Shown one piece after another: positions 38,240 to 54,508 of a DNA stretch of 64,000 bases. A program made the position numbers and the translations under genes. Numbering within the stretch: position 1 is the stretch's first letter; each line of letters opens with the position of its first letter. A model generated the notes under the pieces. The model had not been told where the DNA came from. It worked only from the letters and a program-made list of their open reading frames with translations, and did not search any database. The DNA comes from Eubacteriales bacterium (GTDB lineage: Bacteria; Bacillota; Clostridia; Oscillospirales; CAG-272). The stretch covers positions 9,498 through 73,497 of the forward strand of contig JAZNND010000014.1 in NCBI GenBank assembly GCA_045580085.1, read 5' to 3'.

Positions 38240-38267
38240 ACAATTTGTTAAAACGAAAGCGTAGTTC

Positions 38268-38297
38268 TTGACAAGCGGAAAGGGATTATGCTATACT
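38268..38297 (+). promoter_or_regulatory. Sigma-A promoter of the leuA-like/ACS1 operon
   Basis: TTGACA-18 bp-(TGn)TATACT. Confidence 0.75.
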
Positions 38298-38325
38298 CAT
38301 TGCATCAAAAAAAGGAGATACCGAT

Positions 38326-38418
38326 ATGGCACGCGCAATTGCAATGGCACTCGAGCTATCCGCTGTGATCCTAACGAAGTCTGTTCGTATGGGTGACAGT
38401 GTTGTTTGTCGTGCATGA
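38326..38418 (+). CDS. Putative 30-aa attenuation leader peptide MARAIAMALELSAVILTKSVRMGDSVVCRA
   Basis: Strong RBS AAAGGAG. Leu codons are CTC, CTA, CTA. Sits between the promoter and a terminator. Not in the ORF track. Confidence 0.65.
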   Translation: MARAIAMALELSAVILTKSVRMGDSVVCRA

Positions 38419-38463
38419 ATTGGCGTATCGGCAGCGGTATTTACCAAAGCTATAAGTGAATCC

Positions 38464-38505
38464 AATTCCCACGCGCTTCGCTGCGCCGTGGGAATTTTTA
38501 TTTTT
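38464..38505 (+). terminator. Attenuator terminator in the leader
   Basis: AATTCCCACG...CGTGGGAATT followed by TTTATTTTT. GAATTGG (38417-38423) can pair instead with CCAATTC (38462-38468). Confidence 0.7.
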
Positions 38506-38535
38506 AAATCGGCATGAGCCGAAAGGAGAAAAACT

Positions 38536-39936
38536 ATGCAGAACATTCATATCACAGATACCACGCTTCCCAAGAGAGAAGAGAGTGGAAACGCCGCCTA
38601 CAGCTTCCGCGAGAAGATTGAAATCGCGAAAACGCTTGACCGTATCGGTGTTTCGGTTATTGAAATGCCCCCCTTTACGGGCAGCCGTGCCGACATCCTT
38701 CTTTTGCACACGGTGCTTCCTGTGGTAAAAAACGCTGTTCTTTCCTGCCGTCCCGCTTTGAATGAAAGCTCTGTTGCCGCTGTGTGCGATGCCATGAAGG
38801 GCTATAAGAACGCTCGCGTTCATATCGCGGTGCCGACCTCTCCCGTACAGATGGAATATCATTGCCATAAGAAGCCCAAGCCCTTGATGGAGCTTGTGGA
38901 AAAGCTGATCCAAACCGCTATGTCTGCCGGTTTTGAGGTAGAGTTTTCGGCACTCGATGCTACCCGCGCCGAAAAGGAATTTCTCTACGAAGTGCTCTCG
39001 CTTGCCGTCAAGGCGGGCGTGAAATACATCACCCTTTGCGATAGCGAGGGAATCATGCTCCCCGATGAATTTGCCGCTTTTGTTTCCGATGTGAAGAAAA
39101 ACGTGGCACTCGCTGATTGCGAGATCGGCGTGGAATGCTCCGATTTTCTGCATATGGGCTGTGCGCTCGCCGTTGCCGCCATCGGCGCGGGGGCTGTGAC
39201 GGTGAAGACCGCTGTCGGTGTGGATGGAACTACCCCCCTGCCTGCGTTTGCTTCCGTTTTGAAGATGAGAGGGGATTCTCTTGGCATCACCTCGTCGCTG
39301 AACGGTGCAAGCCTTGGCAAAACCGCCGCCAAGATCACTGCCATGACCAACGCTTCGCAAGCTGGAAAAGCGGCGATCGGCGAAAATGACGCCGCAAGCC
39401 TCGTGCTTCGCAACACCGATGATGAAAAGACGGTTGCTTCCGCGGTAGCCGCCCTCGGATACGATCTTTCCGAGGAGGATATGCACAAGGTTTACGAGAG
39501 CTTCAAACGTCTGTCCGAAAAGAAAACCATAAGCGGTGCCGAGCTTGATGTTATCGTAGCCAGCAGCGCGCTTGAGGTTGCTCCTACTTTTGTCTTGAAG
39601 AGCTATTCCGTGACGTCGAGCAACGTTATTTCCGCATCGGCTCATATCGAGCTTGAAAAAGACGGCGCGCTCCTTCGCGGTATCAGCCTTGGTGACGGCC
39701 CCGTTGACGCCGCCTTCCGTGCGATTGAACAAATCGTGGGCCACCGTTTTGAGCTTGACGATTTCGGCATTCGTGCATTGACCGAAGGGCAAGAGGCTGT
39801 CAGTGAGACGGTTGTCCGTCTGCGTGCGGGCGGCAAGATCTATTCCGGCAGAGGCGTTTCCACCGACATCATCGGTTCGAGTGTCCGCGCCTATATCAGT
39901 GCCCTCAATAAGATCTGCTTTGAAGAAATGCTTTGA
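38536..39936 (+). CDS. LeuA (2-isopropylmalate synthase)-like protein with a degenerate active site and retained C-terminal regulatory domain
   Basis: DTTLPKREE replaces DTTLRDGEQ, ECSD replaces HCHND, and GERAGN is absent. 'GDGPVDAAFRAI...GRGVSTDIIGSSVRAYISALNK' is intact. Confidence 0.85.
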   Translation: MQNIHITDTTLPKREESGNAAYSFREKIEIAKTLDRIGVSVIEMPPFTGSRADILLLHTVLPVVKNAVLSCRPALNESSVAAVCDAMKGYKNARVHIAVPTSPVQMEYHCHKKPKPLMELVEKLIQTAMSAGFEVEFSALDATRAEKEFLYEVLSLAVKAGVKYITLCDSEGIMLPDEFAAFVSDVKKNVALADCEIGVECSDFLHMGCALAVAAIGAGAVTVKTAVGVDGTTPLPAFASVLKMRGDSLGITSSLNGASLGKTAAKITAMTNASQAGKAAIGENDAASLVLRNTDDEKTVASAVAALGYDLSEEDMHKVYESFKRLSEKKTISGAELDVIVASSALEVAPTFVLKSYSVTSSNVISASAHIELEKDGALLRGISLGDGPVDAAFRAIEQIVGHRFELDDFGIRALTEGQEAVSETVVRLRAGGKIYSGRGVSTDIIGSSVRAYISALNKICFEEML

Positions 39937-39962
39937 TCGTAAAGCAGAAAAGGAGAAACAGC

Positions 39963-42440
39963 ATGAAATTATCATTTTCCACCAACCGTTGGAAGGACAC
40001 CACCATGTCGGAATTCTTCGCCATGGCGAAGGAATACCGTTTTTCCGGCGTTGAAATTCACAGCATAGAGGACTTTGGAGAAAAGGAATGCTCCGCCTTG
40101 TATCATGAGGCGATGGCACTGAACCTTTCCATTGCCTGCCTTGATATGGGTGCCGATATCGGTGCCGCCGATGATACCGCCGCGAAGGAAGAGCTTTCGG
40201 CTTGCATTGCCGCCGCGCACAGATTGCATACCCCATACCTTCGTTTGCGTGCAGGCAAGGGCGAAGGCGCAGTAGAGAACAGCGAAAAATTCCTCACATA
40301 CGCCTTGGAAGAGGCACACAAAGCCGATCTTGTGCTTCTTATTGAGACGGTTGGCGCGTATGCCGATACGGGCGTTCTTGCGAATACGCTTCGCCGTTTT
40401 GCGGATGACTCTTTGGGTGCGCTTTGGGATGTTTACTATCCCTATACCGAAGCGGGTGAGAGTGCCGAAAAAACCATCCAGAACCTCGGTGCTGCCGTGA
40501 AGCACGTTCATATGAAGGATGCGGACGGCATGGATGAATTCCGCCCCGTGGGGGAAGGAAAGATGCCCCTTGCGGATTTTATGAACGCATTACGCTCTGT
40601 CAATTACGACGGATTTATTTCCGCCGAGTGGGATCCCGATTGGATGGAGGAGCTTGCGGATGCTTCTATCATCTTCCCTCATTTTGTAACCTACATGTCG
40701 CGGTATAAGGATCCTTCTCGCAATGTTGTGTCGCTGTATGAAAACAAGGCGAAAACGGGTAAGTTCGTTTGGAAAAAAGAAACGCTGATCGAAAAGACCT
40801 TCGGTCAGGTGCTTGATACCATGGTGGAGCTTTTTCCCGATCAATACGCTATCAAGTATACGACGCTTGACTACACGCGTACCTATGCCGAGTTCCGCGA
40901 CGACGTCGATACCTTCGCGCGCGCCCTTGTTTCACTCGGTGTGCGTGCGGGTAGCCATGTTGCACTTTGGGCAACCAACCTTCCCGAGTGGTACATTGCC
41001 TTTTGGGCGACCACCAAGATCGGTGCGGTTCTGGTTACCGTCAATACCGCTTACAAGATTCATGAAGTGGAATATCTTTTGCGTCAATCGGATACCCATA
41101 CGCTGATTCTCGAACAGGGATACCGTGATTCTCATTACGATGAGATTATCGCCGAGCTTTGCCCGGAGTTGGAAAATACCAAGCCGGGCGAACCGCTTCG
41201 TTCGCGCCGCTTGCCTTTCCTTCGCAATGTCATTACCATCGGCTATAAGCAAAAAGGGTGCCTTTCCTTTGATGAGACGGTTGCCCGCGCCGACCGTGTG
41301 CCTCAAGAAGAAGTCAATCGCATGGCGGCTGCGGTGGATATCCACGACGTTTGCAACATGCAATACACCTCCGGCACCACAGGTTTCCCCAAGGGCGTTA
41401 TGCTGACGCATTACAATGTTGTCAACAACGGCAAGTGCATCGGCGACCGTATGGATCTTTCTACCGCCGATCGGCTTATGATTCAAGTGCCTATGTTCCA
41501 CTGCTTCGGCATGGTGCTTGCCATGACCGCCTCCATGACACACGGCGTTACCATCTATCCCTTACCTTACTTCTCTCCGAAGCCTGCGCTCGCTTGCATT
41601 CATAACGAGCACATCACTGCTTTCCACGGTGTTCCTACCATGTTTATTGCTCTCTTGGAACATCCCGATTTCCCCAAGACCGATTTCTCGTATATGCGTA
41701 CGGGTATCATGGCGGGCTCACCTTGCCCTATTTCGGTTATGGAGGACGTTGTCAACAAGATGCACATGTCCGAGATTACCATCGTTTACGGGCAGACCGA
41801 GGCATCTCCCGGATGCACCATGAGTTCGACCGACGATCCGCTTGAGGTGCGTGTCGGTACCGTCGGCAGAAATCTGCCCGAGATCGAGTGCCGCATTGTA
41901 GATCCCGAGACGGGTGAAGAGCTCCCCGACAATGTAACGGGTGAGTTTGTAGCGCGCGGTTATAACATCATGAAGGGATATTATAAGATGCCCGAAGCAA
42001 CCTCTAAGGCAATCGATGCCGAAGGTTGGCTCCACACGGGCGACTTGGCTTGCCGCACCCCCGAAGGCAATTACCGTATTACGGGCCGCTTGAAGGATAT
42101 GATCATCCGCGGCGGCGAGAACATTTATCCCAAGGAGATCGAGGAATTTATTTATACCCATCCGAAGGTCAGCGATGTACAAGTCATCGGTGTGCCCGAC
42201 GAGCAATACGGCGAGGAAATCATGGCTTGCATCATTTTGAAAGAGGGCGAGAGCATGACCGAACAGGAAATGAAGGACTATGTGCTTGCGCATATGGCAA
42301 AGCATAAGGTGCCGAAATATATCGATTTTGTCGATGCCTTCCCGATGAATGCCGCAGGTAAGATTCTTAAGTATAAGATGCGTGAGGATGCCGTAGAAAA
42401 GCTTGGTTTGCATAAAGCTGCCAAGATCGTTACCGCGTAA
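39963..42440 (+). CDS. Acyl-CoA synthetase (ACS1, AMP-binding) with fused N-terminal AP_endonuc_2-type TIM barrel
   Basis: N-terminal 'LLIET', 'LWDVYYP', 'HVHMKD', 'SAEW'. C-terminal 'YTSGTTGFPKG', 'YGQTE', 'WLHTGDLA', 'RLKDMIIRGGENIYP', 'AAGKI'. Confidence 0.9.
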   Translation: MKLSFSTNRWKDTTMSEFFAMAKEYRFSGVEIHSIEDFGEKECSALYHEAMALNLSIACLDMGADIGAADDTAAKEELSACIAAAHRLHTPYLRLRAGKGEGAVENSEKFLTYALEEAHKADLVLLIETVGAYADTGVLANTLRRFADDSLGALWDVYYPYTEAGESAEKTIQNLGAAVKHVHMKDADGMDEFRPVGEGKMPLADFMNALRSVNYDGFISAEWDPDWMEELADASIIFPHFVTYMSRYKDPSRNVVSLYENKAKTGKFVWKKETLIEKTFGQVLDTMVELFPDQYAIKYTTLDYTRTYAEFRDDVDTFARALVSLGVRAGSHVALWATNLPEWYIAFWATTKIGAVLVTVNTAYKIHEVEYLLRQSDTHTLILEQGYRDSHYDEIIAELCPELENTKPGEPLRSRRLPFLRNVITIGYKQKGCLSFDETVARADRVPQEEVNRMAAAVDIHDVCNMQYTSGTTGFPKGVMLTHYNVVNNGKCIGDRMDLSTADRLMIQVPMFHCFGMVLAMTASMTHGVTIYPLPYFSPKPALACIHNEHITAFHGVPTMFIALLEHPDFPKTDFSYMRTGIMAGSPCPISVMEDVVNKMHMSEITIVYGQTEASPGCTMSSTDDPLEVRVGTVGRNLPEIECRIVDPETGEELPDNVTGEFVARGYNIMKGYYKMPEATSKAIDAEGWLHTGDLACRTPEGNYRITGRLKDMIIRGGENIYPKEIEEFIYTHPKVSDVQVIGVPDEQYGEEIMACIILKEGESMTEQEMKDYVLAHMAKHKVPKYIDFVDAFPMNAAGKILKYKMREDAVEKLGLHKAAKIVTA

Positions 42441-42520
42441 ATCCGCGCCCTCCCTTCCGCAAGGAAGGGGGGGAACTCGGTGTACAATTATCCTAAAAAC
42501 AGAAACGAAGAATATAAATT

Positions 42521-43306
42521 ATGATTATCGACGCACATTGCCACATATATCCCGATGCCATTGCTTCGCGCGCCGTGGCGGGGATCGGCAATTTTTATAA
42601 CATGCCGTTGCTTTACGACGGCACATTGGCGACGCTGAACGCCGCCCATGCGGCAAACGGCATCACGCATGCTGTCATTTTTTCGGTGGCGACAAAACCT
42701 TCTCAAACAGCGGGTATCAATCGCTTTATTGCCGAAAACGTGTCGGCTTCGAACGGCCGTTTTGTCGGACTTGGTACACTCCATCCGGACAGTGAAGACA
42801 TTAAGGGAGACATAGAGCACATTTTGGAGCTTGGATTGCGCGGTGTTAAATTGCATCCCGATATTCAACGCTTCAAGATCGATGACTACAGGTGCCTTAA
42901 AATCTATGAGCTCTGCGAGGGGAGACTTCCCGTTCTTTTGCATTGCGGCGACCACCGTTTTGATTTTTCCAATCCCAATCGCTTACGCCCTATCTTGGAG
43001 ATCTTTACCGAACTTCAAGTGATCGGCGCACATTTCGGCGGTTGGTCGGTTTGGAATGAGGCGGAAGATATGCTCAGCGGATTTTCCAATTTTTCGGTGG
43101 ATACCTCTTCTTCCTTCTATGCGCTCACACCCGAAAAAGCAACCGAAATTGTCCGCAAATTCGGTGCGGACCGCGTGATGTTTGCTACCGATTATCCCAT
43201 GTGGGATATCGGGGAAGAACTGGGGAGATTTTATAAGCTTTCTTTAACGGAGGACGAGAGGGAAGCGGTTCTTTGGCGCAACGCTGCCCGCATTTTTGGA
43301 TTTTAA
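42521..43306 (+). CDS. Amidohydrolase family protein (Amidohydro_2)
   Basis: 'IIDAHCH', 'GVKLHP', 'LHCG', 'AHFGG', 'FATDYP'. Confidence 0.88.
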   Translation: MIIDAHCHIYPDAIASRAVAGIGNFYNMPLLYDGTLATLNAAHAANGITHAVIFSVATKPSQTAGINRFIAENVSASNGRFVGLGTLHPDSEDIKGDIEHILELGLRGVKLHPDIQRFKIDDYRCLKIYELCEGRLPVLLHCGDHRFDFSNPNRLRPILEIFTELQVIGAHFGGWSVWNEAEDMLSGFSNFSVDTSSSFYALTPEKATEIVRKFGADRVMFATDYPMWDIGEELGRFYKLSLTEDEREAVLWRNAARIFGF

Positions 43307-43424: not shown

Positions 43425-43453
43425 TTGACAAACGGTTTTTCGAGTGCTATAAT
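43425..43453 (+). promoter_or_regulatory. Consensus sigma-A promoter
   Basis: TTGACA-17 bp-(TGn)TATAAT. Confidence 0.9.
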
Positions 43454-43467
43454 CATGACATAATTGA

Positions 43468-43722
43468 AAAAGGCTATGACGAAGACGGACGAAGACGAGT
43501 GCTTCCAGAGAGTCGGTGGCGGTGTGAATCCGACAGTTACCCCCTTCAGTTCCCATCCCTTCTGAGCCGAAGTCCCCAACGCATCTGCAAGTAGGGCCTT
43601 CCGTATGGCTGCGTAAAAGCACGGAGCTTGTTTGAGCTCGCAGAGAGGCACCTTTGGTGCAATTTGAGTGGTACCGCGGATAATTTATTACCCGTCTCAA
43701 AGAAATTTGAGACGGTTTTTTT
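43468..43722 (+). ncRNA. T-box riboswitch, predicted Ile specifier (AUC at 43555-43557)
   Basis: Stem I K-turn GGCTATGACGAAG...CTTCTGAGCC, CAGAGA and GGTGTGA distal motifs, T-box AATTTGAGTGGTACCGCG (43661-43678), terminator CCGTCTCAAA/TTTGAGACGG followed by T7. Confidence 0.9.
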
Positions 43723-43751
43723 ATTTAAGATTAAGAAAAGGAGAACGCATC

Positions 43752-46016
43752 ATGAAAAACACGGTAAATTCTTTGGCGGAGGTTGCGGCACGTATCCGCG
43801 AGATGCGTGAGATTTTAGGCTTCAGTACCGCAGAAATGGCAGAAAAGACGGAAGTCGAAAAAGAGCTTTACGAGGAATACGAAAAGGGTGAGACCGATCT
43901 TCCTTTTTCCTTTATTCATAAATGCACGTTGGCATTCGGCGTAGACATTGCGGACCTTTTGGAAGGTAACAGCGCAAAGCTTTCTTCCTATACCGTTACG
44001 CGCAAAGGAAAAGGTCAGTTGACAGCCAAGGAAAACGGCATTGAGATTTCCAATATGGCGCCCCGTTTCCGCAACAAGCTTGCCGAACCTTATTGGGTTC
44101 GTTATGAATATTCAGAGGAACTTCAAAACCGCCCCATTCATACCACCACCCACGGCGGTCAGGAGTTTGACCTCGTGATCAGCGGTTCTTTGAAGGTGCA
44201 GATCGGTGAGCATACTGTTGTTTTGGAGGAGGGGGACAGCATTTACTATGAAAGCGGTACTCCCCACGGCATGATCGCTGTCGGCGGCAAGGACTGCGTG
44301 TTCTGCGCTGTCGTTCTTCCCGACGAGGATGTGTCCGATGAAAAAGAGATCGAAAAGTCCATCGTTACTGCAGGGGCTAAGCGTGAGCTTTTGATCAACA
44401 AGTTCATCAAGTGCAAAGAAAACGAAGAGGGTGTTTTGACCGAGATTTCTTTCACGGATGACGATAAATACAATTTCGCCTTTGATACCGTTGACGCTAT
44501 CGCGGATAAATATCCCGATAAGCTTGCGATGCTCCACGTTGCCAACGATAAGTCCGAACGCCGCTTCACATACCGTGACATCAAGCGCGAGTCCAACCGT
44601 TGCGCCAATTATTTAAAGTCTCTCGGCATCGGCAAGGGAGACCGCGTGGTCGTTGTTCTGAAAAGACATTATGAGTTCTGGTTTGCGATTCTCGCGCTTC
44701 ATAAGCTCGGTGCTGTTGCCATCCCCGCAACCAACCAGCTTAAGGCGCATGACTTTGTTTACCGCTTTAAGTCCGCAGGCGTTAAAGCCATCCTTTGCAC
44801 CGCCACCGATAAGACTGCGGAAGAGGTCGATATCGCAGCTGCCGAATGCCCGACGCTTACGGCGAAGATCCTTGTGAACGGCGACCGTGAGGGCTGGCAT
44901 AATTTCGGCGAAGAGTATAAGCTTTACAGTACGCATTTCGAACGCACCGCCGACGCGGCATGCGGAAACGATCCTATGATCATGTTCTTTACCTCGGGTA
45001 CGACCGGTTATCCGAAAATCGCCATGCACAGCTATAAGTATGCCCTCGGTCATTTTCCGACGGCACGCTATTGGCATGACATCCGCCCCGAGGATTTACA
45101 CTTGACCATTTCGGAAACCGGTTGGGGCAAAGCCCTTTGGGGCAAGCTTTACGGACAGTGGATGTGTGAAGGTGCGGTTTTTGTCTACGACTTTGACCGC
45201 TTCAATGCTTCCGATATCCTTCCGATGTTCTCGAAATATCATATCACCACCTTCTGTGCGCCTCCCACCATGTACCGTATGCTCATCAAAGACGATCTTT
45301 CGGGATACGATCTTTCGAGCATTCGCCACGCAACCACCGCGGGCGAGGCACTCAATCCCGAGGTGTTCTATCAGTTTAAAAAGGCGACCGGGTTGACTAT
45401 CATGGAGGGCTTCGGACAGACAGAAACCACCCTCACCATCGGCAATTTGGTCGGCACCACGCCCAAGCCCGGCTCTATGGGTAAAGCGATGCCGCTTTAC
45501 GATATCGATATCGTGGATACCGACGGTAATCCCGTCGGCACGGGTGAAAACGGTGAGATCGTTGTTCGCACCGACAAGCGTGTTCCCCCCGGACTCTTCC
45601 TCGGTTATTACAACGATGAGGAGAAAACGCATGACGCATGGCACGACGGTATGTATCATACGGGCGACGTTGCTTGGAGAGACGAGGACGGCTTCTTCTG
45701 GTATGTCAGCCGCATCGATGACGTCATCAAGTCCTCCGGTTACCGCATCGGTCCGTTTGAGATCGAGAACGTCATCATGGAGCTGCCTTATGTGCTTGAA
45801 TGCGGTGTTTGCGCCGCGCCCGATGAGGTCAGAGGGCAAGTAGTCAAGGCTTGCATTGTGTTGACCAAGGGCACCGAAGGCACCGATGCACTCAAAAAAG
45901 AAATTCAAGAGTATGTAAAAACGCATACGGCACCGTATAAATATCCCCGTATCGTTGAATTCCGTACCGAGCTTCCCAAAACCATCAGCGGTAAAATCCA
46001 ACGCAATAAGCTCTAA
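43752..46016 (+). CDS. XRE-HTH/cupin/medium-chain acyl-CoA synthetase fusion (ACS2)
   Basis: N-terminal 'RIREMRE...EMAEKT', cupin 'THGGQEF...GDSIYY...PHGM', then 'FTSGTTGYPK', 'GFGQTE', 'YHTGD', 'KSSGYRIGPFEIE', 'SGKIQR'. Confidence 0.92.
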   Translation: MKNTVNSLAEVAARIREMREILGFSTAEMAEKTEVEKELYEEYEKGETDLPFSFIHKCTLAFGVDIADLLEGNSAKLSSYTVTRKGKGQLTAKENGIEISNMAPRFRNKLAEPYWVRYEYSEELQNRPIHTTTHGGQEFDLVISGSLKVQIGEHTVVLEEGDSIYYESGTPHGMIAVGGKDCVFCAVVLPDEDVSDEKEIEKSIVTAGAKRELLINKFIKCKENEEGVLTEISFTDDDKYNFAFDTVDAIADKYPDKLAMLHVANDKSERRFTYRDIKRESNRCANYLKSLGIGKGDRVVVVLKRHYEFWFAILALHKLGAVAIPATNQLKAHDFVYRFKSAGVKAILCTATDKTAEEVDIAAAECPTLTAKILVNGDREGWHNFGEEYKLYSTHFERTADAACGNDPMIMFFTSGTTGYPKIAMHSYKYALGHFPTARYWHDIRPEDLHLTISETGWGKALWGKLYGQWMCEGAVFVYDFDRFNASDILPMFSKYHITTFCAPPTMYRMLIKDDLSGYDLSSIRHATTAGEALNPEVFYQFKKATGLTIMEGFGQTETTLTIGNLVGTTPKPGSMGKAMPLYDIDIVDTDGNPVGTGENGEIVVRTDKRVPPGLFLGYYNDEEKTHDAWHDGMYHTGDVAWRDEDGFFWYVSRIDDVIKSSGYRIGPFEIENVIMELPYVLECGVCAAPDEVRGQVVKACIVLTKGTEGTDALKKEIQEYVKTHTAPYKYPRIVEFRTELPKTISGKIQRNKL

Positions 46017-46052
46017 AAAACAAAAAAAGTGTTGTTTTTTTGCGGATTTCTC

Positions 46053-46081
46053 TTGACAAATAAAAAAGATACTGCTATACT
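46053..46081 (+). promoter_or_regulatory. Sigma-A promoter
   Basis: TTGACA-17 bp-(TGn)TATACT. Confidence 0.85.
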
Positions 46082-46101
46082 ATCCATATAAAAGAATAAT
46101 C

Positions 46102-46368
46102 AAAGGCATTGACGAAGAGGATGCTTGGCACAGCTTACAGAGAACCGGCGGTTGGTGTGAGTCGGGAGTGGGTGTCTTGCGGTCGGTAGCTTCCGAGCCG
46201 ATGGGAAGAAAGCGTTTCGCCGTAGAACCCATCCGTGATTGCTGCGTTAAGGCATAGGGCTTAATGGAGTCCGAGAGTGGCACCTATGGTGCAATTTGAG
46301 TGGTACCGCGGGATAAGTTTCTTATACCCGTCTCAAAGTCGTCAGTATCTTTGAGACGGGTTTTCTTG
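46102..46368 (+). ncRNA. T-box riboswitch, predicted Val specifier (GUA at 46186-46188)
   Basis: GGCATTGACGAAG...CTTCCGAGCC, CAGAGA and GGTGTGA motifs, T-box AATTTGAGTGGTACCGCG (46293-46310), terminator CCCGTCTCAAAG/CTTTGAGACGGG followed by T4. Confidence 0.9.
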
Positions 46369-46418
46369 TTCTTTTCCGTCCCGAAGAAACCATCAAAAGC
46401 AGAAAAGGAAAATCTATC

Positions 46419-48716
46419 ATGGAACAACAGATCACAGGTCTTGATCTCAAGATCAGGGAAATGGCATCCCGTATCCGCGCTTTGCGTGAGATCGAGGCAC
46501 TTTCCGTTGCTGACATGGCGAAAAAGACCAATGTCAGTGAGGCGGAATACTTAGCTTGTGAAAACGGCGAGAGCGATTTGAACTTTGCTTTCATCTACCG
46601 TTGCGCACTTGCGTTCAATGTGGACGTTACCGATATTATTGAAGGTACGAGCCCCAAGCTCGGTGCTTTCACTGTGACGAGAAGCGGAGAAGGGCAGCGC
46701 ATTGAGCAGGCGCATGGCATGGTTTATTATAACCTGGCACCTTCTTTCCGTAACCGTATTGCCGAGCCTCTTCTTGTACGCGCCGCATACAGCACTGATG
46801 CCGAGCATGCCGATATTGAGCTAACCACCCATGACGGGCAGGAGTGCGATATTGTTCTTAAAGGTTCTCTTAAGGTGCAGGTCGGTGAACATAAGGTCGT
46901 TCTTCACGAAGGTGACAGCATTTATTACGATTCGTCTACGCCGCACGGTATGATCGCCGCGGAGGGAGAGGACTGTCTCTTCTACGCCTTTGTGCTCAAT
47001 CCCTCGGGCGAACCTATTCCCGAGCTTGAGACTTCGACCAAGGCTTCCGTTGTGGATAAGCCTCGCAAGAAAGAGAGTAAAGAGCCTCGCGTATACGATA
47101 AATGGGTGGATGCCGAGGAGGATGAGAACGGTGTTCTCAAAAAGATCTCCTTCCGTAACGCCGAAAAATTCAATTTTGCTTTCGATATTGTTGATGTTCT
47201 TGCGAAAGAAAAGCCGGATAAGCTCGCCATGCTTCATCTTGACAGAGATAAGACCGAGCGCCGCTTTACCTTCCGTGATATCAAACGCGCTTCCAACCAG
47301 TGCGCGAACTATTTCAAGTCTCTCGGCATCAAAAAAGGCGACCGCGTCATGCTGGTGCTCAAACGTCACTATCAGTTCTGGTTTGCCATGCTTGGACTTA
47401 ACAAGCTTGGTGCCATTGTTATTCCCGCCACCAATCAGCTGAAATCTCATGACTTCAGCTACCGCTTCGGTGCCGCCGGTATCAGTGCCATTCTTTGCAC
47501 CTCGGATGCCGAAACGGTGAGCGAAGCTGAGATTGCGCTTGCCGAGTCTCCTTCCGTTGTTCACCGTATCATTGTCGGAGAAGCACGTGAGGGTTGGCGC
47601 AACTTTGACGATGAGTATACGCTTTACAGCACTCATTTCCACCGCACCGCAGAAAGTCCTTGCGGCGACGACTTGATGCTCATGTTCTTTACCTCGGGCA
47701 CCACGGGTTATCCCAAGATTGCCGCACACAATTATAAGTACGCGCTTGGGCATTTCTTAACCGCTAAGTATTGGCACGGTGTAAACCCCGAAGGGCTTCA
47801 CTTCACCATCTCGGATACCGGATGGGCAAAGGCAATGTGGGGTAAGCTTTACGGTCAGTGGATGGCAGAGGGCGCAACCTTTGTATATGACTTTGTCCGC
47901 TTCAGCGCGGCGGATATTCTTCCCTTGTTTGCTAAATATCATATCACTACTTTCTGTGCGCCTCCTACTATGTACCGTATGATGATCAAGCAAGATCTGA
48001 CGAAATACGATATGACTTCCGTAGAGCGCGCGACCACCGCGGGCGAGGCACTCAACCCCGAGGTATTCCGTCAGCTTGAAAAGCTCATGGGGCTTAAGAT
48101 CATGGAAGGCTTCGGTCAGTCCGAGTGCACGCTCATGATCGGTAATTTGCTCGGTGATTCGCATAAACTCGGCTCGATGGGTAAACCTGTTCCGCTTTAC
48201 GATGTGGATATCGTGGATCCCGACGGTAAGAGCGTCGGTGTCGGTGAAACGGGTGAGATCGTTGTACATACCGAAAACGGCGCACCTTGCGGTCTGTTCA
48301 CGGGCTACTATCTGGACGAAGAAAAAACGCGTGACGCATGGCACGACGGTCTTTATCACACGGGCGATACCGCGTGGAGAGACGAGGACGGATTCTATTG
48401 GTATGTCGGCCGTGTGGATGATGTCATCAAGTCCTCCGGTTACCGCATCGGTCCGTTTGAGATCGAGAATGTTATCATGGAGTTGCCTTATGTTCTTGAG
48501 TGCGGCATTTCCGCGGCTCCCGATCCTGTCAGAGGTCAGGTTGTCAAGGCAAGCATTGTTTTGACCAAGGGAACGGAAGGCACGGAAGAGCTGAAAAAAG
48601 AAATCCAAGAGTACGTCAAGCAAAAGACAGCACCTTACAAATATCCCAGAATCGTTGTATTCCGTGATGAATTGCCCAAGACCACCAGCGGCAAGATCAT
48701 CCGCAACAAGCTTTGA
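46419..48716 (+). CDS. XRE-HTH/cupin/medium-chain acyl-CoA synthetase fusion (ACS3), paralog of ACS2
   Basis: Same domain order and motifs as 43752-46016. Confidence 0.92.
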   Translation: MEQQITGLDLKIREMASRIRALREIEALSVADMAKKTNVSEAEYLACENGESDLNFAFIYRCALAFNVDVTDIIEGTSPKLGAFTVTRSGEGQRIEQAHGMVYYNLAPSFRNRIAEPLLVRAAYSTDAEHADIELTTHDGQECDIVLKGSLKVQVGEHKVVLHEGDSIYYDSSTPHGMIAAEGEDCLFYAFVLNPSGEPIPELETSTKASVVDKPRKKESKEPRVYDKWVDAEEDENGVLKKISFRNAEKFNFAFDIVDVLAKEKPDKLAMLHLDRDKTERRFTFRDIKRASNQCANYFKSLGIKKGDRVMLVLKRHYQFWFAMLGLNKLGAIVIPATNQLKSHDFSYRFGAAGISAILCTSDAETVSEAEIALAESPSVVHRIIVGEAREGWRNFDDEYTLYSTHFHRTAESPCGDDLMLMFFTSGTTGYPKIAAHNYKYALGHFLTAKYWHGVNPEGLHFTISDTGWAKAMWGKLYGQWMAEGATFVYDFVRFSAADILPLFAKYHITTFCAPPTMYRMMIKQDLTKYDMTSVERATTAGEALNPEVFRQLEKLMGLKIMEGFGQSECTLMIGNLLGDSHKLGSMGKPVPLYDVDIVDPDGKSVGVGETGEIVVHTENGAPCGLFTGYYLDEEKTRDAWHDGLYHTGDTAWRDEDGFYWYVGRVDDVIKSSGYRIGPFEIENVIMELPYVLECGISAAPDPVRGQVVKASIVLTKGTEGTEELKKEIQEYVKQKTAPYKYPRIVVFRDELPKTTSGKIIRNKL

Positions 48717-49378
48717 TGAATATGAAATACGAACCTAAACGAATTACACTTTTTGCAGGGCATTACGGCAGTGGAAAAACCAACATCGCCGTAAACTATG
48801 CTTTGCAATTGGCGAAAAACGGCATGCCCGTAACCATCGCCGACCTTGATATCGTCAATCCTTATTTCCGCACCAAAGACAGTGCCGCAGAACTTGAGGC
48901 GGCAGGTGTTCGCCTCATTTCCTCTGCCTATGCAAACTCCAATGTCGATTTGCCCGCCTTGCCGGCTGAGCTGTATGCTTTGACGGAGGACAAAAGCCGT
49001 TACGCCGTGTTTGACGTTGGCGGCGACGACAGAGGCGCACTGGCACTTGGCAGATACGCACCCGCCATCAAGGAGGAAGGGAAGTACGAAATGATTTTCG
49101 TTGCCAACTTCTATCGCCCCTTGACGCGAAACGCCGAAGAGGCACTTGAGGTGATGCGTGAGATTGAGGCGGCGGGCGGTATCCCCTTTACGGGAATCGT
49201 TCATAACTCTAACGTCGGTCCCGAAACGACTCCCGATGATATTCGCGCCAAAAGCGCGGAAGCGGAAAAACTATCCGCGATGGCGGCTTTGCCCATTCTC
49301 TTCACCGCGGCGGAAAGCACGGTGGCAAAGGGCATGGACAACACGTTGCCGCTTGATTTGCAAAAGAAAATTTTTTAA
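48716..49378 (+). CDS. P-loop ATP-binding protein (MinD/ParA/CobQ-like) at the head of the oxidoreductase genes
   Basis: 'GHYGSGKTN', 'DLDIVNPYFR', 'DVGGD'. TGATG stop/start overlap with ACS3. Confidence 0.8.
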   Translation: MNMKYEPKRITLFAGHYGSGKTNIAVNYALQLAKNGMPVTIADLDIVNPYFRTKDSAAELEAAGVRLISSAYANSNVDLPALPAELYALTEDKSRYAVFDVGGDDRGALALGRYAPAIKEEGKYEMIFVANFYRPLTRNAEEALEVMREIEAAGGIPFTGIVHNSNVGPETTPDDIRAKSAEAEKLSAMAALPILFTAAESTVAKGMDNTLPLDLQKKIF

Positions 49379-49397: not shown

Positions 49398-49604
49398 ATG
49401 GCAAAAGTGACATTTAATACCGACCTTTGCAAGGGCTGCGGGCTTTGCGTCGATGCTTGCCCGAAGAAACTGCTCGTGATTGCGAAGGATAAGATCAACA
49501 AGAAAGGGCATTCTCCTGCCGAAATGACCGATATGAGTAAGTGCATCGGTTGCGCCTTCTGTGCGACCATGTGCCCCGATTGCGTCATTCGTGTTGAGAA
49601 ATAA
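49398..49604 (+). CDS. 2[4Fe-4S] ferredoxin-like delta subunit of 2-oxoacid:ferredoxin oxidoreductase
   Basis: CKGCGLCVDACP and CIGCAFCATMCP. Confidence 0.93.
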   Translation: MAKVTFNTDLCKGCGLCVDACPKKLLVIAKDKINKKGHSPAEMTDMSKCIGCAFCATMCPDCVIRVEK

Positions 49605-49617
49605 GGAGGAAAAAGAA

Positions 49618-50679
49618 ATGTCTGAGAAAGTACTTATGAAGGGCAACGAGGCGATTGCGGAGGCTGCTATTTTGGCAGGTTGCCGCCATTACTTCGGCTA
49701 CCCCATCACCCCTCAAACCGAGATTGCCGCTTATATGGCAAAACGCATGCCCAAGATCGGCGGCGTATTTCTCCAAGCGGAGAGTGAGATCTCCGCGATC
49801 AATATGGTTTACGGTGTTGCAGGCGCGGGACTTCGCGTAATGACCTCCTCCTCCAGCCCCGGAATTTCGCTCAAGAGCGAAGGCCTTTCCTATCTTGCGG
49901 GCAGTGATCTTCCCGCACTGATCGTCAATGTCCAGAGAGGCGGCCCCGGTCTCGGCGGTATTCAGCCCTCCCAGTCCGACTATTTCCAAGCCACTCGCGG
50001 CGGCGGCCACGGTGACTATCATATGCTGGTATATGCGCCTGCTTCCGTTCAGGAAATGGCTGATTTGACCGTTCTTGGTTTTGAGAAGGCAGACGAATAC
50101 CGTATGACTGCCATGATCCTTGCTGACGGTACGATGGGCCAAATGATGGAGCCTGTTGCGCTTCCCAAGGGCGAGAGCCGTACCTTCCCGAAGCCTTGGG
50201 CTTTGACGGGTACCGGTTGCGAGCGTAAGCACAATATCGTCAACTCCCTTTTCCTCAAGCCCGAAACGCTTGAGAAGGAGAATTTCGCGCGTTATGAGCG
50301 TTACCGTAAGATCGAAGAGACAGAAGCTATGTATGAGTCCTTCATGATGGAAGATGCAGAATACTGCGTTGTTGCCTTCGGTATCGCCGCGCGCGTATCC
50401 AAAAACGCCATCGTAGAAGCACGCAAAGCGGGCGTTAAGGTCGGTATGATCCGTCCTATCACCGTTTGGCCCTTCCCGAAGGCACCCCTTGCCGAGGCTG
50501 CAAAGCAAGTCAAGGCATTCCTTTCCGTAGAGCTTTCCATGGGGCAGATGATCGAAGACATCGAGCTGGCTACCCGTTGCGCACGTCCTGTGCTTCTTTG
50601 CAACCGTGCGGGCGGCATGATCCCCTCGCCCGAGGAAGTTTACGCGAAAATCATGGATATGGCAAAGGAGGTAAAATAA
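49618..50679 (+). CDS. vorB: 2-oxoisovalerate (3-methyl-2-oxobutanoate):ferredoxin oxidoreductase alpha-type subunit
   Basis: 'GNEAIAEAAI', 'YPITPQTE', 'SSSSPGISLK', 'RGGPGLGGIQPSQSDYFQ', 'VELSMGQM'. ATG at 49618 follows GGAGG. Confidence 0.85.
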   Translation: MSEKVLMKGNEAIAEAAILAGCRHYFGYPITPQTEIAAYMAKRMPKIGGVFLQAESEISAINMVYGVAGAGLRVMTSSSSPGISLKSEGLSYLAGSDLPALIVNVQRGGPGLGGIQPSQSDYFQATRGGGHGDYHMLVYAPASVQEMADLTVLGFEKADEYRMTAMILADGTMGQMMEPVALPKGESRTFPKPWALTGTGCERKHNIVNSLFLKPETLEKENFARYERYRKIEETEAMYESFMMEDAEYCVVAFGIAARVSKNAIVEARKAGVKVGMIRPITVWPFPKAPLAEAAKQVKAFLSVELSMGQMIEDIELATRCARPVLLCNRAGGMIPSPEEVYAKIMDMAKEVK

Positions 50680-50680
50680 G

Positions 50681-51433
50681 ATGAGCATCGTATTTGATAA
50701 GCCCAAGTCTTTGGCGGATGTTCCCTTCCATTACTGCCCCGGATGCACCCACGGTATCATTCACCGTTTGGTGGCTGAGGCGATTGATGAGCTTGGTATT
50801 GAGGGTAAGGCTATCGGCGTAGCCCCTGTAGGCTGTGCTGTTATGGCGTATGACTATTTTACCTGCGATATGATCGAGGCGGCACACGGCCGCGCACCCG
50901 CCGTTGCGACGGGTATCAAGAGAGGCAGACCTGACAATATTGTATTCACCTATCAGGGTGACGGCGACCTTGCCTCCATCGGTATGGCAGAGACCGTACA
51001 CGCCGCCGCAAGAAACGAAAACATCACCATCATCTTCGTTAACAATGCCATTTACGGTATGACGGGCGGTCAGATGGCCCCCACCTCGCTTCCCGGTCAG
51101 GTTACGCAGACCTCGCCTTACGGCAGAGACGTTAAGGTGCAAGGCTATCCTGTTAAGGTTGCGGAGCTTCTTTCGGCACTTGACGGACCTACCTATATCG
51201 AGCGTGTTGCCGTAAACAATGTTAAAAACGTAAAGAATGCGAAGAAGGCGATCCTCAAAGCATTCCGCAATCAGGTAGAGGGCAAGGGCTTCTCTCTTGT
51301 TGAAGTCGTTTCTTCCTGCCCCACCAACTGGGGTATGACGCCCTCGAAGGCACTGCAATGGGTGGATGAAAAGATGATCCCCTACTATCCTCTCGGCGTA
51401 TACCGCGACAAGACTGCCGACGAAGGCAAATAA
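50681..51433 (+). CDS. 2-oxoacid:ferredoxin oxidoreductase beta (ThDP-binding) subunit
   Basis: 'HYCPGCTHG', 'AHGRAPA', 'YQGDGDLASIG...NNAIYGMTGGQ', 'CPTNW'. Confidence 0.92.
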   Translation: MSIVFDKPKSLADVPFHYCPGCTHGIIHRLVAEAIDELGIEGKAIGVAPVGCAVMAYDYFTCDMIEAAHGRAPAVATGIKRGRPDNIVFTYQGDGDLASIGMAETVHAAARNENITIIFVNNAIYGMTGGQMAPTSLPGQVTQTSPYGRDVKVQGYPVKVAELLSALDGPTYIERVAVNNVKNVKNAKKAILKAFRNQVEGKGFSLVEVVSSCPTNWGMTPSKALQWVDEKMIPYYPLGVYRDKTADEGK

Positions 51434-51453: not shown

Positions 51454-51993
51454 ATGAATACCACGAATCTTCTTATTGCAGGCTTCGGCGGACAGGGTGT
51501 TCTGTTTGCGGGCAAGTTTATCGCTTATAAAGGGCTCCTTGAAGGCAGACAGCTGAGCTGGCTCCCCTCTTACGGTCCCGAGATGCGCGGCGGCACCGCA
51601 AACTGCAGTGTAATCCTCAGTGACGATCCCGTCGGCTCTCCCATCGTTTCGAATCCCGATGTTCTGATGGTTATGAATCTCCCTTCTCTTGATAAATATG
51701 AGGATGCGGCAGTCAAGGGCGCAAAGATCTTTATTGACTCCACACTCATCGAGAGAAAGGTGCGCCGCACCGATGTCTCCGCTTACTACATCCCCGCGAC
51801 TCAGCTTGCCAAGGATGCCGGCTTCCCCACGCTTGCCAACATGATTATGGTTGGTAAAATGATTCGTGAAAGCGGCCTTATTTCCTATGACGGTTTGCGC
51901 GAGGCACTCGGTAAAGTTGTTTCCGCAAAGCATGCCGACCTTCTTGAGGTTAACCTCAAGGCGATCGAAACAGGCTATAATTACGAAGGCTGA
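51454..51993 (+). CDS. 2-oxoacid:ferredoxin oxidoreductase gamma subunit
   Basis: 'AGFGGQGVL', 'PSYGPEMRGGTANC'. Confidence 0.92.
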   Translation: MNTTNLLIAGFGGQGVLFAGKFIAYKGLLEGRQLSWLPSYGPEMRGGTANCSVILSDDPVGSPIVSNPDVLMVMNLPSLDKYEDAAVKGAKIFIDSTLIERKVRRTDVSAYYIPATQLAKDAGFPTLANMIMVGKMIRESGLISYDGLREALGKVVSAKHADLLEVNLKAIETGYNYEG

Positions 51994-52019: not shown

Positions 52020-53087
52020 ATGTTGAATATCAAGATTGAAAAAACCACGGCTCCCAAAGTGAAGCCTCAAAAAGGTGAAAAGCTTGGTTTCGGCCACATC
52101 TTCACCGATCATATGTTTGTGATGAATTATACCGAGGGCAAGGGTTGGCACGATGCCCGTATTGTGCCTTACGGTCCGATTTCTCTTGATCCTTCCGCTA
52201 TGGTGTTCCATTACGGTCAGGAAATGTTTGAGGGCTTGAAGGCATATAAAGGTGCTGACGGCAAGGCGTACCTTTTCCGTCCTGATATGAACGCTAAGCG
52301 TGCCAATAAGTCCAATGACCGCCTTTGCATTCCTCACATTCCCGAAGAGGATTTTGTAGAGGCTGTCAGAGCCGTTGTAGAGGTGGATAAGGATTGGATT
52401 CCCGAAGAGGAGGGTACTTCTCTTTACATTCGTCCTTTTGTGATCGCAACCGATGAATTCCTCGGTGTTGCTCCCTCCAAGACCTATCTTTTCATGGTTA
52501 TCCTTTCTCCCAGCGGAGCTTATTATGCCAGCGGACTTGCACCTGTAGGCATTTGGATTGAGGACGAATATGTTCGTGCCGTCAAAGGCGGTATGGGCTT
52601 TGCTAAGACCGGCGGTAACTACGCCGCATCCTTGATCGCGCAGGTTAAGGCTCATGACGATGGCTATAGCCAGGTGCTCTGGCTCGACGGTGTGGAAAGA
52701 AAGTACATCGAAGAGGTCGGTGCCATGAATATCTTCTTCAAGATCGATGGCAAGGTTGTGACTCCTATGCTCAACGGCAGCATTCTCCCCGGTGTCACCC
52801 GTGATTCGGTTCTCCGTCTCTGCCGCGAATGGGGCTATGAGGTTGAGGAAAGAAGAATCTCCGTAGAAGAGCTCGTTGCAGCTGCCAAGTGCGGCAAGCT
52901 GGAAGAGGTTTGGGGTACGGGTACGGCGGCTGTTGTTTCCCCTGTTGGCAAGCTTCGCTATTGCGATGATGTCATGCAGATCGGCGGCGGCGAGATCGGA
53001 GAGCTGACACAAAAGCTTTACGATGAGATCACCGGTATCCAATGGGGCAAACGCCCTGATCCGTTTGGCTGGAGAAAAGAGGTTTAA
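52020..53087 (+). CDS. ilvE: Branched-chain amino acid aminotransferase
   Basis: 'FHYGQEMFEGLKAY', 'AKTGGNYA', 'EEVGAMNIF', 'ILPGVTR', 'GTAAVVSP'. Confidence 0.95.
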   Translation: MLNIKIEKTTAPKVKPQKGEKLGFGHIFTDHMFVMNYTEGKGWHDARIVPYGPISLDPSAMVFHYGQEMFEGLKAYKGADGKAYLFRPDMNAKRANKSNDRLCIPHIPEEDFVEAVRAVVEVDKDWIPEEEGTSLYIRPFVIATDEFLGVAPSKTYLFMVILSPSGAYYASGLAPVGIWIEDEYVRAVKGGMGFAKTGGNYAASLIAQVKAHDDGYSQVLWLDGVERKYIEEVGAMNIFFKIDGKVVTPMLNGSILPGVTRDSVLRLCREWGYEVEERRISVEELVAAAKCGKLEEVWGTGTAAVVSPVGKLRYCDDVMQIGGGEIGELTQKLYDEITGIQWGKRPDPFGWRKEV

Positions 53088-53224: not shown

Positions 53225-54508
53225 ATGAAAGAACTTAGAATTGAAACCAAATGCGTGCAAGGCGGCTACACGCCCGGCAACGGCGAGCCCCGTCAAGTAC
53301 CGATCATTCAGAGCACGACCTTTAAATATGAGACCAGTGCCGATATGGGCAAGCTTTTTGATCTCGAAGCATCGGGCTACTTCTATTCCCGTTTGCAAAA
53401 TCCCACTTGCGACACGGTTGCGGCAAAGATCTGCGCCTTGGAAGGCGGAAGTGCCGCTATGCTGACTTCTTCCGGTCAGGCGGCAAACTTTTATGCCGTT
53501 TTCAATATCGCAAACTGTGGGGATCACGTTGTGGCATCTTCTGCGATCTATGGCGGTACCTTCAATCTTTTTGCCGTCACCATGAAGAAAATGGGCATCG
53601 AATTCACCTTTGTGAAGCCCGACTGTTCCGATGAAGAGCTGGAAGCGGCATTCCGCCCGAATACCAAGGCGGTATTCGGTGAAACTATTGCCAACCCCGC
53701 CCTTTCCGTACTGGACATTGAGCGTTTTGCCAATGCCGCGCATGCGCACGGTGTTCCGCTGATCATCGATAATACTTTTGCAACACCCGTCCATTGCCGT
53801 CCCATTGAGTGGGGTGCGGACATTGTGACGCACTCTACTACGAAATATATGGACGGTCACGGTGCGGCTGTCGGCGGATGTATCGTAGACAGCGGTAAGT
53901 TTGACTGGATGGCTCACGCCGAGAAGTTCCCCGGTCTTTGCACGCCCGATGACAGCTATCACGGTATCACGTATGCCGAAAAGTTCGGCTTGGGCGGCGC
54001 ATTTATTACCAAAGCGACGGCACAGCTTATGCGTGATTTCGGTTCTACACCCGCACCGCAAAGTGCGTTTATCCTCAATCTCGGTCTTGAGAGCTTGCAT
54101 GTTCGCATGGCACGCCATTTTGAAAACGCGCTTGCTGTTGCCGAATTTTTGGAGAAGCATGAAAAGATCGCTTGGGTGCGTTTCCCCGCACTCCCCTCCG
54201 ATCCCGATTATCCTCTTGTTCAAAAATATATGCCGAAGGGCACGTGCGGAGTCGTCAGCTTCGGTGTCAAGGGCGGCAGAGCCGCGGCAGAGAAGTTTAT
54301 GGGTGCTCTGAAGATCGCAGCGATCGAAACCCATGTTGCCGACGCGCGCAGCTGTTGCTTGCACCCCGCAAGCGCGACGCACCGTCAGATGAGTGACGCG
54401 GAGCTTGAAGCGGCAGGCGTTTCTCCCGATCTTGTTCGTCTTTCTTGCGGTATTGAGAACAAGGAAGATCTTATTGAGGACATCGCGGCGGCACTTGCAA
54501 CCGTCTGA
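53225..54508 (+). CDS. metY: O-acetylhomoserine sulfhydrylase (aminocarboxypropyltransferase)
   Basis: 'YSRLQNPT', 'ETIANP', 'DNTFATP', PLP lysine in '[11 protein letters not shown]', 'HPASATHRQ'. Confidence 0.88.

Follow-up and report, generated by a model that had tools for sequence, protein, structure and literature searches.

The window analysed here, a 64,000-nucleotide stretch of contig JAZNND010000014.1 from a Eubacteriales bacterium (assembly GCA_045580085.1), carries two consecutive gene units on the + strand at 43425-48716. Each unit consists of a promoter, a T-box leader and a gene for an acyl-CoA synthetase (ACS) with an N-terminal helix-turn-helix (HTH)-cupin module. The first leader carries an Ile specifier codon (AUC) and the second a Val codon (GUA), and this pairing of specifier and synthetase paralog is conserved among relatives. 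The locus is best read, and probably correctly, as a T-box-gated system for the salvage of isoacids to Ile and Val. The leaders are class I (transcription-terminating) T-boxes, of which leader 1 would sense uncharged tRNA-Ile and leader 2 uncharged tRNA-Val. The A73-CCA acceptor end of the tRNA would pair with the UGGU bulge of the leader and stabilize the antiterminator over a strong intrinsic terminator. Each leader would gate one ancient paralog of a short branched-chain acyl-CoA synthetase that resembles the enzymes MacsMa and MbcS. The Ile-gated ACS2, which has Gly459, is predicted to activate most likely 2-methylbutyrate. The Val-gated ACS3, with Ala at the 459 position and a bulkier residue at the 562 position, is predicted to activate most likely isobutyrate. 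The acyl-CoAs would undergo reductive carboxylation by a co-transcribed four-subunit 2-oxoacid:ferredoxin oxidoreductase (VOR) and transamination by the adjacent branched-chain aminotransferase (BCAT), yielding Ile and Val, for which the source organism seems to have no de novo route. The leaders with their specifiers and alternative helices, the set of genes and the conserved specifier-paralog pairing are shown directly, whereas the flux direction, the substrates and what residue 459 does are inferred.

The promoter of unit 1 (43425-43453) reads TTGACA-17-TATAAT with an extended -10 TG and matches the consensus at 12 of 12 positions. That of unit 2 (46053-46081) reads TTGACA-17-TATACT, also with TG before the -10 element, and matches at 11 of 12. 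Eight promoter-like sites are present in the region versus a mean of 2.8 in shuffles. T-box leader 1 spans 43467-43702 and leader 2 spans 46100-46338. Both align with positions 1-219 of the RF00230 model, at 76.0 bits (E = 6.7e-16) and 84.7 bits (E = 3.9e-18), and score 76.9 and 74.4 bits, respectively, with a family Stem I model described below. In leader 1, Stem I extends over 43470-43568, with the AUC codon at 43555-43557 followed by a C, the 3' strand of the basal helix (CUUC) at 43559-43562 and the UGGU bulge at 43669-43672. The corresponding parts of leader 2 are Stem I at 46103-46199, GUA at 46186-46188 followed by a G, CUUC at 46190-46193 and UGGU at 46301-46304. Stem I has a K-turn at its base, a specifier loop with the codon just 5' of the basal helix, and the distal AGAGA and GGUG motifs. 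The S-turn of the specifier loop is non-canonical; AGUA/GAA is replaced by a covarying helix, and the 3' strand of the loop reads N-codon-N. Leader 1 also contains a perfect tandem repeat of the 10-mer GACGAAGACG at 43478-43497, on the 5' side of Stem I. The repeat gives rise to two GAAG strands, and for each of them both CUUC strands of the 3' side are possible partners.

Both leaders end in an intrinsic terminator. The terminator of leader 1 (43692-43722) has a 10-bp stem (43692-43715) followed by U7, with a folding energy of -25.7 kcal/mol and a z-score of -3.3. The terminator of leader 2 (46326-46366) has a 13-bp stem (46326-46361), a 10-nt loop and the tail UUUUCUU, at -35.8 kcal/mol and z = -3.5; it is skipped by a simple terminator scan because its loop exceeds 8 nt. 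In the Rfam alignment the 5' strand of each terminator coincides with the 3' strand of the antiterminator helix, which in leader 1 is CCCGUCUCA. In both leaders the strand CCCGUCUCAAAG is common to the two helices, making antiterminator and terminator mutually exclusive. The upstream regions of the two units align with a mean column identity of 78%. A first-pass annotation of this DNA had described a common promoter layout, a common T-box/antiterminator sequence and a common protein architecture, and all of these elements were found in place.

A default-threshold Rfam scan returns nothing because both leaders score below 93 bits, the gathering score of RF00230 in Rfam 15, which is a database threshold and not a biological feature; an E-value threshold reveals them. 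The gathering score is strict for this lineage, since the genome's own ileS leader (64.2 bits) and trpB-like leader (74.8 bits) also score below it. The valS leader of the same genome scores 117.1 bits. Beyond leaders 1 and 2, no T-box was found in the 64-kb window with RF00230 at E ≤ 0.01.

In the RF00230 covariance alignment the specifier region reads c-AUC-c-CUUC (Ile) in leader 1 and g-GUA-g-CUUC (Val) in leader 2. The switch from AUC to GUA had been proposed from the letters alone, with covariance-model alignment named beforehand as the check that could refute it; the alignment keeps the same frame. Other leaders of the genome served as internal controls and read AUC-C (ileS), GUC-G (valS), AAC-A (aspS/gat) and UGG-A (trpB-like). 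Thus the C after the codon in leader 1 is also found in the genome's ileS leader. The specifier helices covary in the family alignment, where 95.2% of cells pair compared to 73.0% in shuffles and none of 500 shuffles reaches the observed value, although such counts lean towards structure, the alignment having been fitted to the model. In the basal helix pairing reaches 100% of cells, and all four of its pairs show double-sided changes. As to the register of the specifier, sliding the 3' partners by one column reduces pairing to ~51%. The same helices were found independently by RNAalifold on a MAFFT seed alignment.

The UGGU bulge had also been considered compatible with discriminator A73 of both tRNA-Ile and tRNA-Val. 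UGGU is present in both leaders. The genome has a tRNA-Val(UAC) gene, and its three tRNA-Val genes all end in ACCA, so that the tRNA-Val discriminator is A73 and matches the bulge. As to the tRNA-Ile half of the proposal, no tRNA-Ile gene was found in the 67-contig assembly. Bacterial tRNA-Ile has A73.

Relatives were collected in a scan of one genome per species, which gave at least 604 pattern-matched stretches, at least 421 of them encoding a synthetase relative; the best 80 loci were used. Nearly all of these come from metagenome-assembled genomes (MAGs) of gut and rumen Clostridia, with record titles such as Acutalibacteraceae, Faecousia, Oscillospiraceae and Christensenellaceae. Searches by tblastn with the window proteins showed a conserved cluster, syntenic across the 80 loci, that consists of a LeuA-like gene, ACS1, sometimes an Amidohydro_2 gene, one or two HTH-cupin ACS genes, an open reading frame (ORF) named ORFx, the VOR alpha, beta and gamma genes and BCAT. 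Of the 117 ACS hits, 105 have the T-box core motif upstream, among them both hits in the window. The other 12 all stand in second or third position, a short gap after the preceding gene.

A family Stem I covariance model was then built from 29 seed leaders. It gave 162 matches at E < 0.01 in 87 sources, of which the best 150 were aligned and read, the specifier being taken as the three bases preceding "N plus basal helix" in the covariance alignment. Leaders before a first or single ACS read AUC in 81 of 81 cases. Those before a second ACS have Val codons in 24 of 24 (GUA 20, GUC 4), and those before the LeuA-like/ACS1 operon have Leu codons in 43 of 43 (CUC 18, CUG 25). The other two of the 150 are a GUA leader whose gene is cut by the end of the locus (L031) and the genome's own ileS leader. 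The pair in the window is one instance of this conserved Leu/Ile/Val triad. The duplication behind it is ancient, not local: the paralog types split at support 1.0 across the sampled MAG lineages, and the repeated unit is part of the triad. The local tandem duplication suggested in the first-pass annotation was therefore abandoned.

ACS2 (43752-46016, 754 aa, Gly459 and Thr562) is the Ile-type and ACS3 (46419-48716, 765 aa, Ala470 and Met573) the Val-type HTH-cupin-acyl-CoA synthetase. The two proteins are identical at 492 of 754 positions (65%) and both have the domain order HTH_19, Cupin_2, AMP-binding and AMP-binding_C; the AMP-binding and AMP-binding_C domains were confirmed with Pfam (E = 1.8e-68 and 1.8e-63). 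Residue numbers below are those of ACS2 unless stated otherwise. The closest solved structure is PDB 3ETC, which matches ACS2 residues 234-752 with an E-value of 5.6e-187. 3ETC is MacsMa of Methanosarcina acetivorans, described in PMC10455477 as preferring 2-methylbutyrate, as having Gly in place of the gatekeeper Trp of Acs, and as having an alternate Trp, Trp259. The Trp414-to-Gly gatekeeper of Acs is confirmed in the account given by PMC6122825. G555 of ACS2 aligns with W414 of E. coli Acs and is Gly in 99 of the 99 family proteins aligned in this work. W441, likewise Trp in 99 of 99, is aligned with Trp 260 in the SEQRES numbering of 3ETC; SEQRES Trp 260 may be the Trp259 of the paper, with the numbering possibly off by one. 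MacsMa thus resembles the ACS pair in having Gly for the gatekeeper Trp and in keeping the alternate Trp. Its residues opposite G459 and T562 are Gly and Thr, the Ile-type states. It differs in being archaeal and in having neither the HTH-cupin module nor a T-box, and the Val-type enzyme differs from it in having Ala at 459.

The best NCBIfam model for both proteins is MbcS (NF047394), at 449.5 bits for ACS2 and 438.3 bits for ACS3. They are called MbcS-like, not MbcS, because these scores are far under the equivalog cutoff of 850 bits. MbcS of Staphylococcus aureus is reported to activate 2-methylbutyrate and isobutyrate selectively, isovalerate being a poor substrate (PMC10026030). As a stand-alone enzyme, MbcS uses both acids and supplies lipid synthesis, whereas ACS2 and ACS3 are fused paralogs, and each of the two is linked to a single amino acid as well as to VOR and BCAT.

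Two segments of the probable acyl pocket had been singled out as different between the paralogs, SETGWGKALW (454-463) and QTETTLTIG (556-564) in ACS2 and SDTGWAKAMW and QSECTLMIG at the aligned residues of ACS3. These differences are present in the two proteins. Across the family, 116 ACS genes (80 loci plus the window) were translated, and 17 products of less than 700 aa, mostly cut at contig ends and one with a mis-estimated start, were dropped. The remaining 99 proteins were aligned; 70 have an AUC leader, 22 have a GUA or GUC leader, and seven are second copies without a leader of their own, which were counted in the Val group. A zero-overlap site was defined as one with no residue common to the Ile and Val groups. 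There are 21 such sites, and only one of them lies in the 521-residue catalytic half (residues 234-754). That site is G459, which is Gly in 70 of 70 Ile-type proteins and Ala in 22 of 22 Val-type proteins with their own leader and in seven of seven without. No other catalytic site differs between the types while being at least 90% fixed within each. The proposed G-to-A change thus partitions the whole family perfectly (70/70 versus 29/29). In an alignment of ACS2 with E. coli K-12 Acs, G459 corresponds to Val310, K460 to Thr311, A530 to Val386 and G555 to Trp414. Residue 459 would carry functional weight because the Gly/Ala difference is strictly retained in a domain that otherwise barely separates the paralogs.

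The rest of the proposed pocket changes held up in part or not at all. T562, which is Met573 in ACS3, tracks the specifier in part: Ile-type proteins have Gly 29, Thr 27, Ser 7, Val 3, Ile 2 and Ala 2; Val-type proteins with their own leader have Ile 9, Met 4, Ala 4, Val 4 and Leu 1; and the leaderless copies have Ile 7. The changes E455/D, L462/M, T557/S and T559/C are not diagnostic. Position 557 is Thr in all 70 Ile-type proteins, Ser 16 and Thr 6 in Val-type proteins with their own leader, and Ser 7 in the leaderless copies. In the same order of groups, position 462 has Leu 63 and Met 7; Met 11, Ala 5, Leu 3 and Ser 3; and Met 4, Leu 2 and Ser 1. Position 455 has Asp 37 and Glu 33; Asp 22; and Asp 7. 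Position 559 has Thr 39, Met 29 and Leu 2; Thr 9, Ser 9, Gly 3 and Cys 1; and Ser 7.

The association of residue 459 with the specifier was also seen in metagenomes. A scan with ACS3 gave 649 pattern-matched stretches, 631 of them encoding relatives, and 80 loci were kept. The counts cover the 89 ACS genes for which 420 nt or more of upstream sequence is available and come from a set enriched for Ala, because one of the six search patterns contains the diagnostic Ala. Genes with Ala at 459 have GUA in 43 cases and GUC in 12, with the leader not found in six. Genes with Gly have AUC in 23 cases, with the leader not found in two. Three genes (L149, the first copy of L168, and L162) were exceptions at the automatic read. 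L149 is Ile-type at 21 of 21 diagnostic sites and has an AUC leader after all; its automatic read was shifted because three bases, not one, separate the codon from the helix. The residue-specifier rule is strong, not absolute. The coupling is also not absolute in the genome set, where the seven leaderless Val-type copies occur.

The genes behind ACS3 would link the acyl-CoAs to amino acids. VOR delta (49398-49604, + strand, as are all the genes that follow) is a 68-aa ferredoxin with two CxxCxxCxxxCP [4Fe-4S] motifs (Pfam Fer4, E = 1e-13). VOR alpha, of the VorB type (49618-50679), scores 526.7 bits with NF005507 (cutoff 399) and is taken to start at an internal ATG (MSEKVLMKG...) after delta. 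VOR beta (50681-51433) is TPP-binding, with a TPP_enzyme_C domain, and VOR gamma (51454-51993) has a POR domain; the NCBIfam matches of both are below the equivalog cutoff. BCAT, or IlvE (52020-53087), scores 505.6 bits with NF009897 (cutoff 307) and 419.9 bits with TIGR01123 (cutoff 250), and it is the only Aminotran_4 (class IV aminotransferase) gene found in the genome. The genome has three POR-type enzymes. KARI_C (IlvC) and ILVD_EDD_N (IlvD) were not found in this 96.5%-complete genome and were found in 14 of 14 control genomes. A canonical LeuBCD set is doubtful as well because the genome has only one Iso_dh gene and one aconitase gene.

The split between the paralogs can also be explained without two strict substrate specificities. 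The two enzymes may have overlapping substrate ranges and the divergence may lie in the HTH-cupin module, which could sense, for example, Ile versus Val or the respective keto acids, leaving residue 459 as minor tuning. This is possible but somewhat unlikely. The module, to which the first-pass annotation did not refer, comprises residues 1-233 (window 43752-44450 in ACS2 and 46419-47120 in ACS3) and contains the other 20 of the 21 discriminating zero-overlap sites. N-terminal identity is 0.456 between types versus 0.65 within types, whereas the identity of the catalytic half is 0.69 between types versus 0.75 and 0.74 within. The full-length alignment gives an exact split of 29 Val-type from 70 Ile-type proteins at support 1.0, and this signal comes from the N-terminal module, since residues 1-233 alone give the exact split at support 1.0. 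The cupin core residues H134, G136, Q137, E138, D140, G161, D162, P171, H172 and G173 are invariant in 99 of 99 proteins, and the diagnostic sites H130/E and F139/C lie within this otherwise invariant core. The pattern fits a ligand site that was retained and retuned between the paralogs. The activation of both acids by MbcS points in the same direction, as do L162 and L168, where residue 459 is not Gly although the N-terminus is still Ile-type and the leader still reads AUC. However, the Gly/Ala partition is perfect in the 99 genome-derived proteins, which argues for selection on residue 459, and MacsMa, an enzyme that prefers 2-methylbutyrate, has Gly at that position.

A triple co-divergence is a tentative proposal and rather unlikely. 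The AUC or GUA specifier would sense tRNA charging, the cupin, with its invariant H-x-GQE-x-D...PHG core and the module's 20 diagnostic residues, would sense the matching free amino acid or keto acid and gate the enzyme allosterically, and residue 459 would set the acid. If true, the pair would be a natural matched set for the joint retargeting of a riboswitch, a sensor domain and an active site after duplication. Two further evolutionary explanations were tried and rejected. Concerted evolution of the catalytic halves leaves a weak trace, with an identity of 0.712 within genomes versus 0.692 across genomes and the within-genome value higher in 24 of 29 loci; for the N-terminal part the within-genome value is higher in 15 of 29 loci. 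As to specialisation after duplication, the pocket-adjacent Ile-type sites are the same in the 35 single-ACS loci as in the 35 first-of-two loci.

Several points weigh against the salvage of isoacids by two specialised enzymes. First, with residues 234-754 the smallest split holding all Val-type proteins also includes nine Ile-type proteins and has a support of 0.47. The association of specifier and residue amounts to a single evolutionary event because it is rooted in one ancient duplication. A specialised pair is dispensable in principle, since MbcS accepts both acids, and 35 of the 70 full-length Ile-type genes lie in loci that contain only one ACS. Residues Val310, Thr311, Val386 and Trp414 would form the acetate pocket of Acs; the Trp gatekeeper is the one of the four confirmed by the papers cited above, and Val310, the counterpart of G459, is a putative pocket residue. 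Pocket residues of human ACSS2 are named in PMC10906504.

Second, two of the metagenome exceptions are genuine. In the first copy of L168 (439-2691), which follows an AUC leader, 19 of 20 N-terminal sites are Ile-type and residue 459 is Met; Met is bulkier than Ala, so this gene misfits a simple size rule. L162 (3195-5447) is Ile-type at 20 of 20 N-terminal sites and has an AUC leader, with Ala at 459 and pocket segments that are exactly Val-like (SDTGWAKAMW, S557, M562). A tree of residues 431-600 places L162, L168 and L044 on the Val side. The pattern of L162 and L168 could be due to recombination or convergence.

Third, the base 3' of the specifier, usually a purine in T-boxes, is C in leader 1 and G in leader 2. 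Both are still filed as T-boxes because a purine after the codon is usual, not defining; of the 81 Ile leaders, 44 have A after the codon, 30 have C and seven have G. Fourth, the gene order poses a regulatory problem. Ile shortage alone would induce ACS2 and not the later steps, since VOR and the sole BCAT sit behind the Val leader. Leaky termination, or a joint shortage of Ile and Val, would have to cover the induction of VOR and BCAT on Ile shortage. Finally, the simple idea that salvage replaces de novo synthesis was rejected, as the two are not strictly complementary: KARI_C is present in 12 of 38 family genomes with a fused ACS versus 12 of 23 without (61 sampled, related genomes not being independent). 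The cluster is thus not a simple stand-in for the de novo route because KARI often coexists with the fused ACS.

The acyl-CoAs might instead mainly prime branched-chain fatty acid (BCFA) synthesis, with the T-boxes tying the salvage of primers to a shortage of the precursor amino acids. This is improbable. Its basis is that MbcS is the best-scoring curated family and is reported to supply BCFA primers from exogenous 2-methylbutyrate and isobutyrate (PMC10026030). In all loci that reach far enough, however, the ACS genes are followed in line by genes for a VorB-type oxidoreductase and for BCAT, the sole one of this genome, and these enzymes link acyl-CoA to amino acid. To our knowledge T-box leaders otherwise occur on amino-acid supply genes. 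In addition, the organism would need another source of Val and Ile because IlvC and IlvD were not found. BCFA priming and amino-acid salvage could occur side by side. Oxidative operation of the operon in the fermentation of branched-chain amino acids (BCAAs), from amino acid through keto acid and acyl-CoA to acid, is highly improbable: VOR and BCAT are reversible and best known from anaerobic amino-acid catabolism, but a catabolic operon should not be switched on by uncharged tRNA, the signal of amino-acid shortage, AMP-forming synthetases spend ATP and do not conserve it, and the de novo route was not found in the genome.

Known class I T-boxes of Firmicutes are found, for example, before ileS and valS and, with a Leu specifier, before the ilv-leu operon of Bacillus subtilis. 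The leaders described here resemble class I T-boxes (RF00230) in the K-turn Stem I, the specifier loop, the AGAGA/GGUG motifs, the UGGN bulge and the mutually exclusive helices, and in the agreement between the specifier and the amino acid expected from the genes behind it. They differ in the genes they precede, which are acyl-CoA synthetases, a 2-oxoacid:ferredoxin oxidoreductase and BCAT, and not aminoacyl-tRNA synthetase, ilv/leu or transporter genes. They differ also in having a covarying helix for the S-turn, in allowing a non-purine after the codon and in scoring under the Rfam gathering score.

The reductive carboxylation of isoacids to BCAAs in rumen and gut anaerobes is physiology that reportedly dates from labelling work of the 1960s. 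For Leu, PMC7356843 describes a rumen route in which isovalerate is carboxylated and the product then aminated. The gene set in the window covers all the steps required, namely acid activation, carboxylation by a ferredoxin-dependent 2-oxoacid oxidoreductase, and transamination. The route is known physiologically in the searchable literature, whereas here there are candidate genes and an amino-acid-specific RNA control. The literature searched, which did not extend to T-box comparative genomics in subscription journals, gave no relevant title on T-box control of such genes or on the route at the gene level. If the salvage reading is true, the locus would put named genes and a regulatory logic behind the conversion of isoacids to amino acids in gut and rumen anaerobes. 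The same isoacids are reported to be given to ruminants as feed supplements. The T-box regulon would be widened to acid-activating enzymes and ferredoxin-dependent carboxylation. The paralogs also constitute a natural experiment, with a single fully diagnostic catalytic residue and a switched specifier codon.

The genes that form the Leu-T-box arm in relatives are present upstream in the window. The LeuA-like gene, ACS1 (TIM barrel plus AMP-binding) and an Amidohydro_2 gene occupy 38536-43306 on the + strand. A third (Leu) T-box before the LeuA-like gene was looked for in the window with RF00230 and the Stem I model and was not found. The region in its place (38266-38535) has a promoter of the same type (TTGACA ... 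TGCTATACT). A 30-codon ORF with its own Shine-Dalgarno sequence lies at 38326-38418, before the LeuA-like gene, and its peptide is not Leu-rich. Between this ORF and the LeuA-like gene there is a strong terminator-like hairpin (~38464-38496) followed by a U-run.

ORFx (48713-49378, + strand) lies between the ACS and VOR genes and encodes a conserved 221-aa P-loop protein (GHYGSGKT). It has weak CbiA/ParA matches below the cutoff and no NCBIfam family. ORFx is present in nearly every locus that extends far enough and may be a maturation or accessory NTPase for VOR. At the other end of the cluster, BCAT is followed by an O-acetylhomoserine sulfhydrylase gene (53225-54508; TIGR01326, 569.9 bits, cutoff 495.1), which also trails the cluster in loci L055, L058, L061 and L083.

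A second T-box-gated operon that resembles an acid-salvage operon was seen on another contig of the source genome (C49:46158-53900; loci L001, L094 and L175). Its T-box scores 120.2 bits and is followed, in order, by a sodium:solute symporter, a 545-aa AMP-binding CoA ligase, IorA (728.6 bits, cutoff 650.9), IorB (288.4 bits, cutoff 230), a PaaK-like phenylacetate-CoA ligase (537.7 bits, below the cutoff of 646.3) and a 141-aa ORF. Its T-box specifier can be read in two ways, as ACC (Thr) by the spacing rule or as UAC (Tyr) if the basal helix gains one A-U pair. The operon looks like an arylacetate-to-aromatic-amino-acid counterpart of the cluster in the window.

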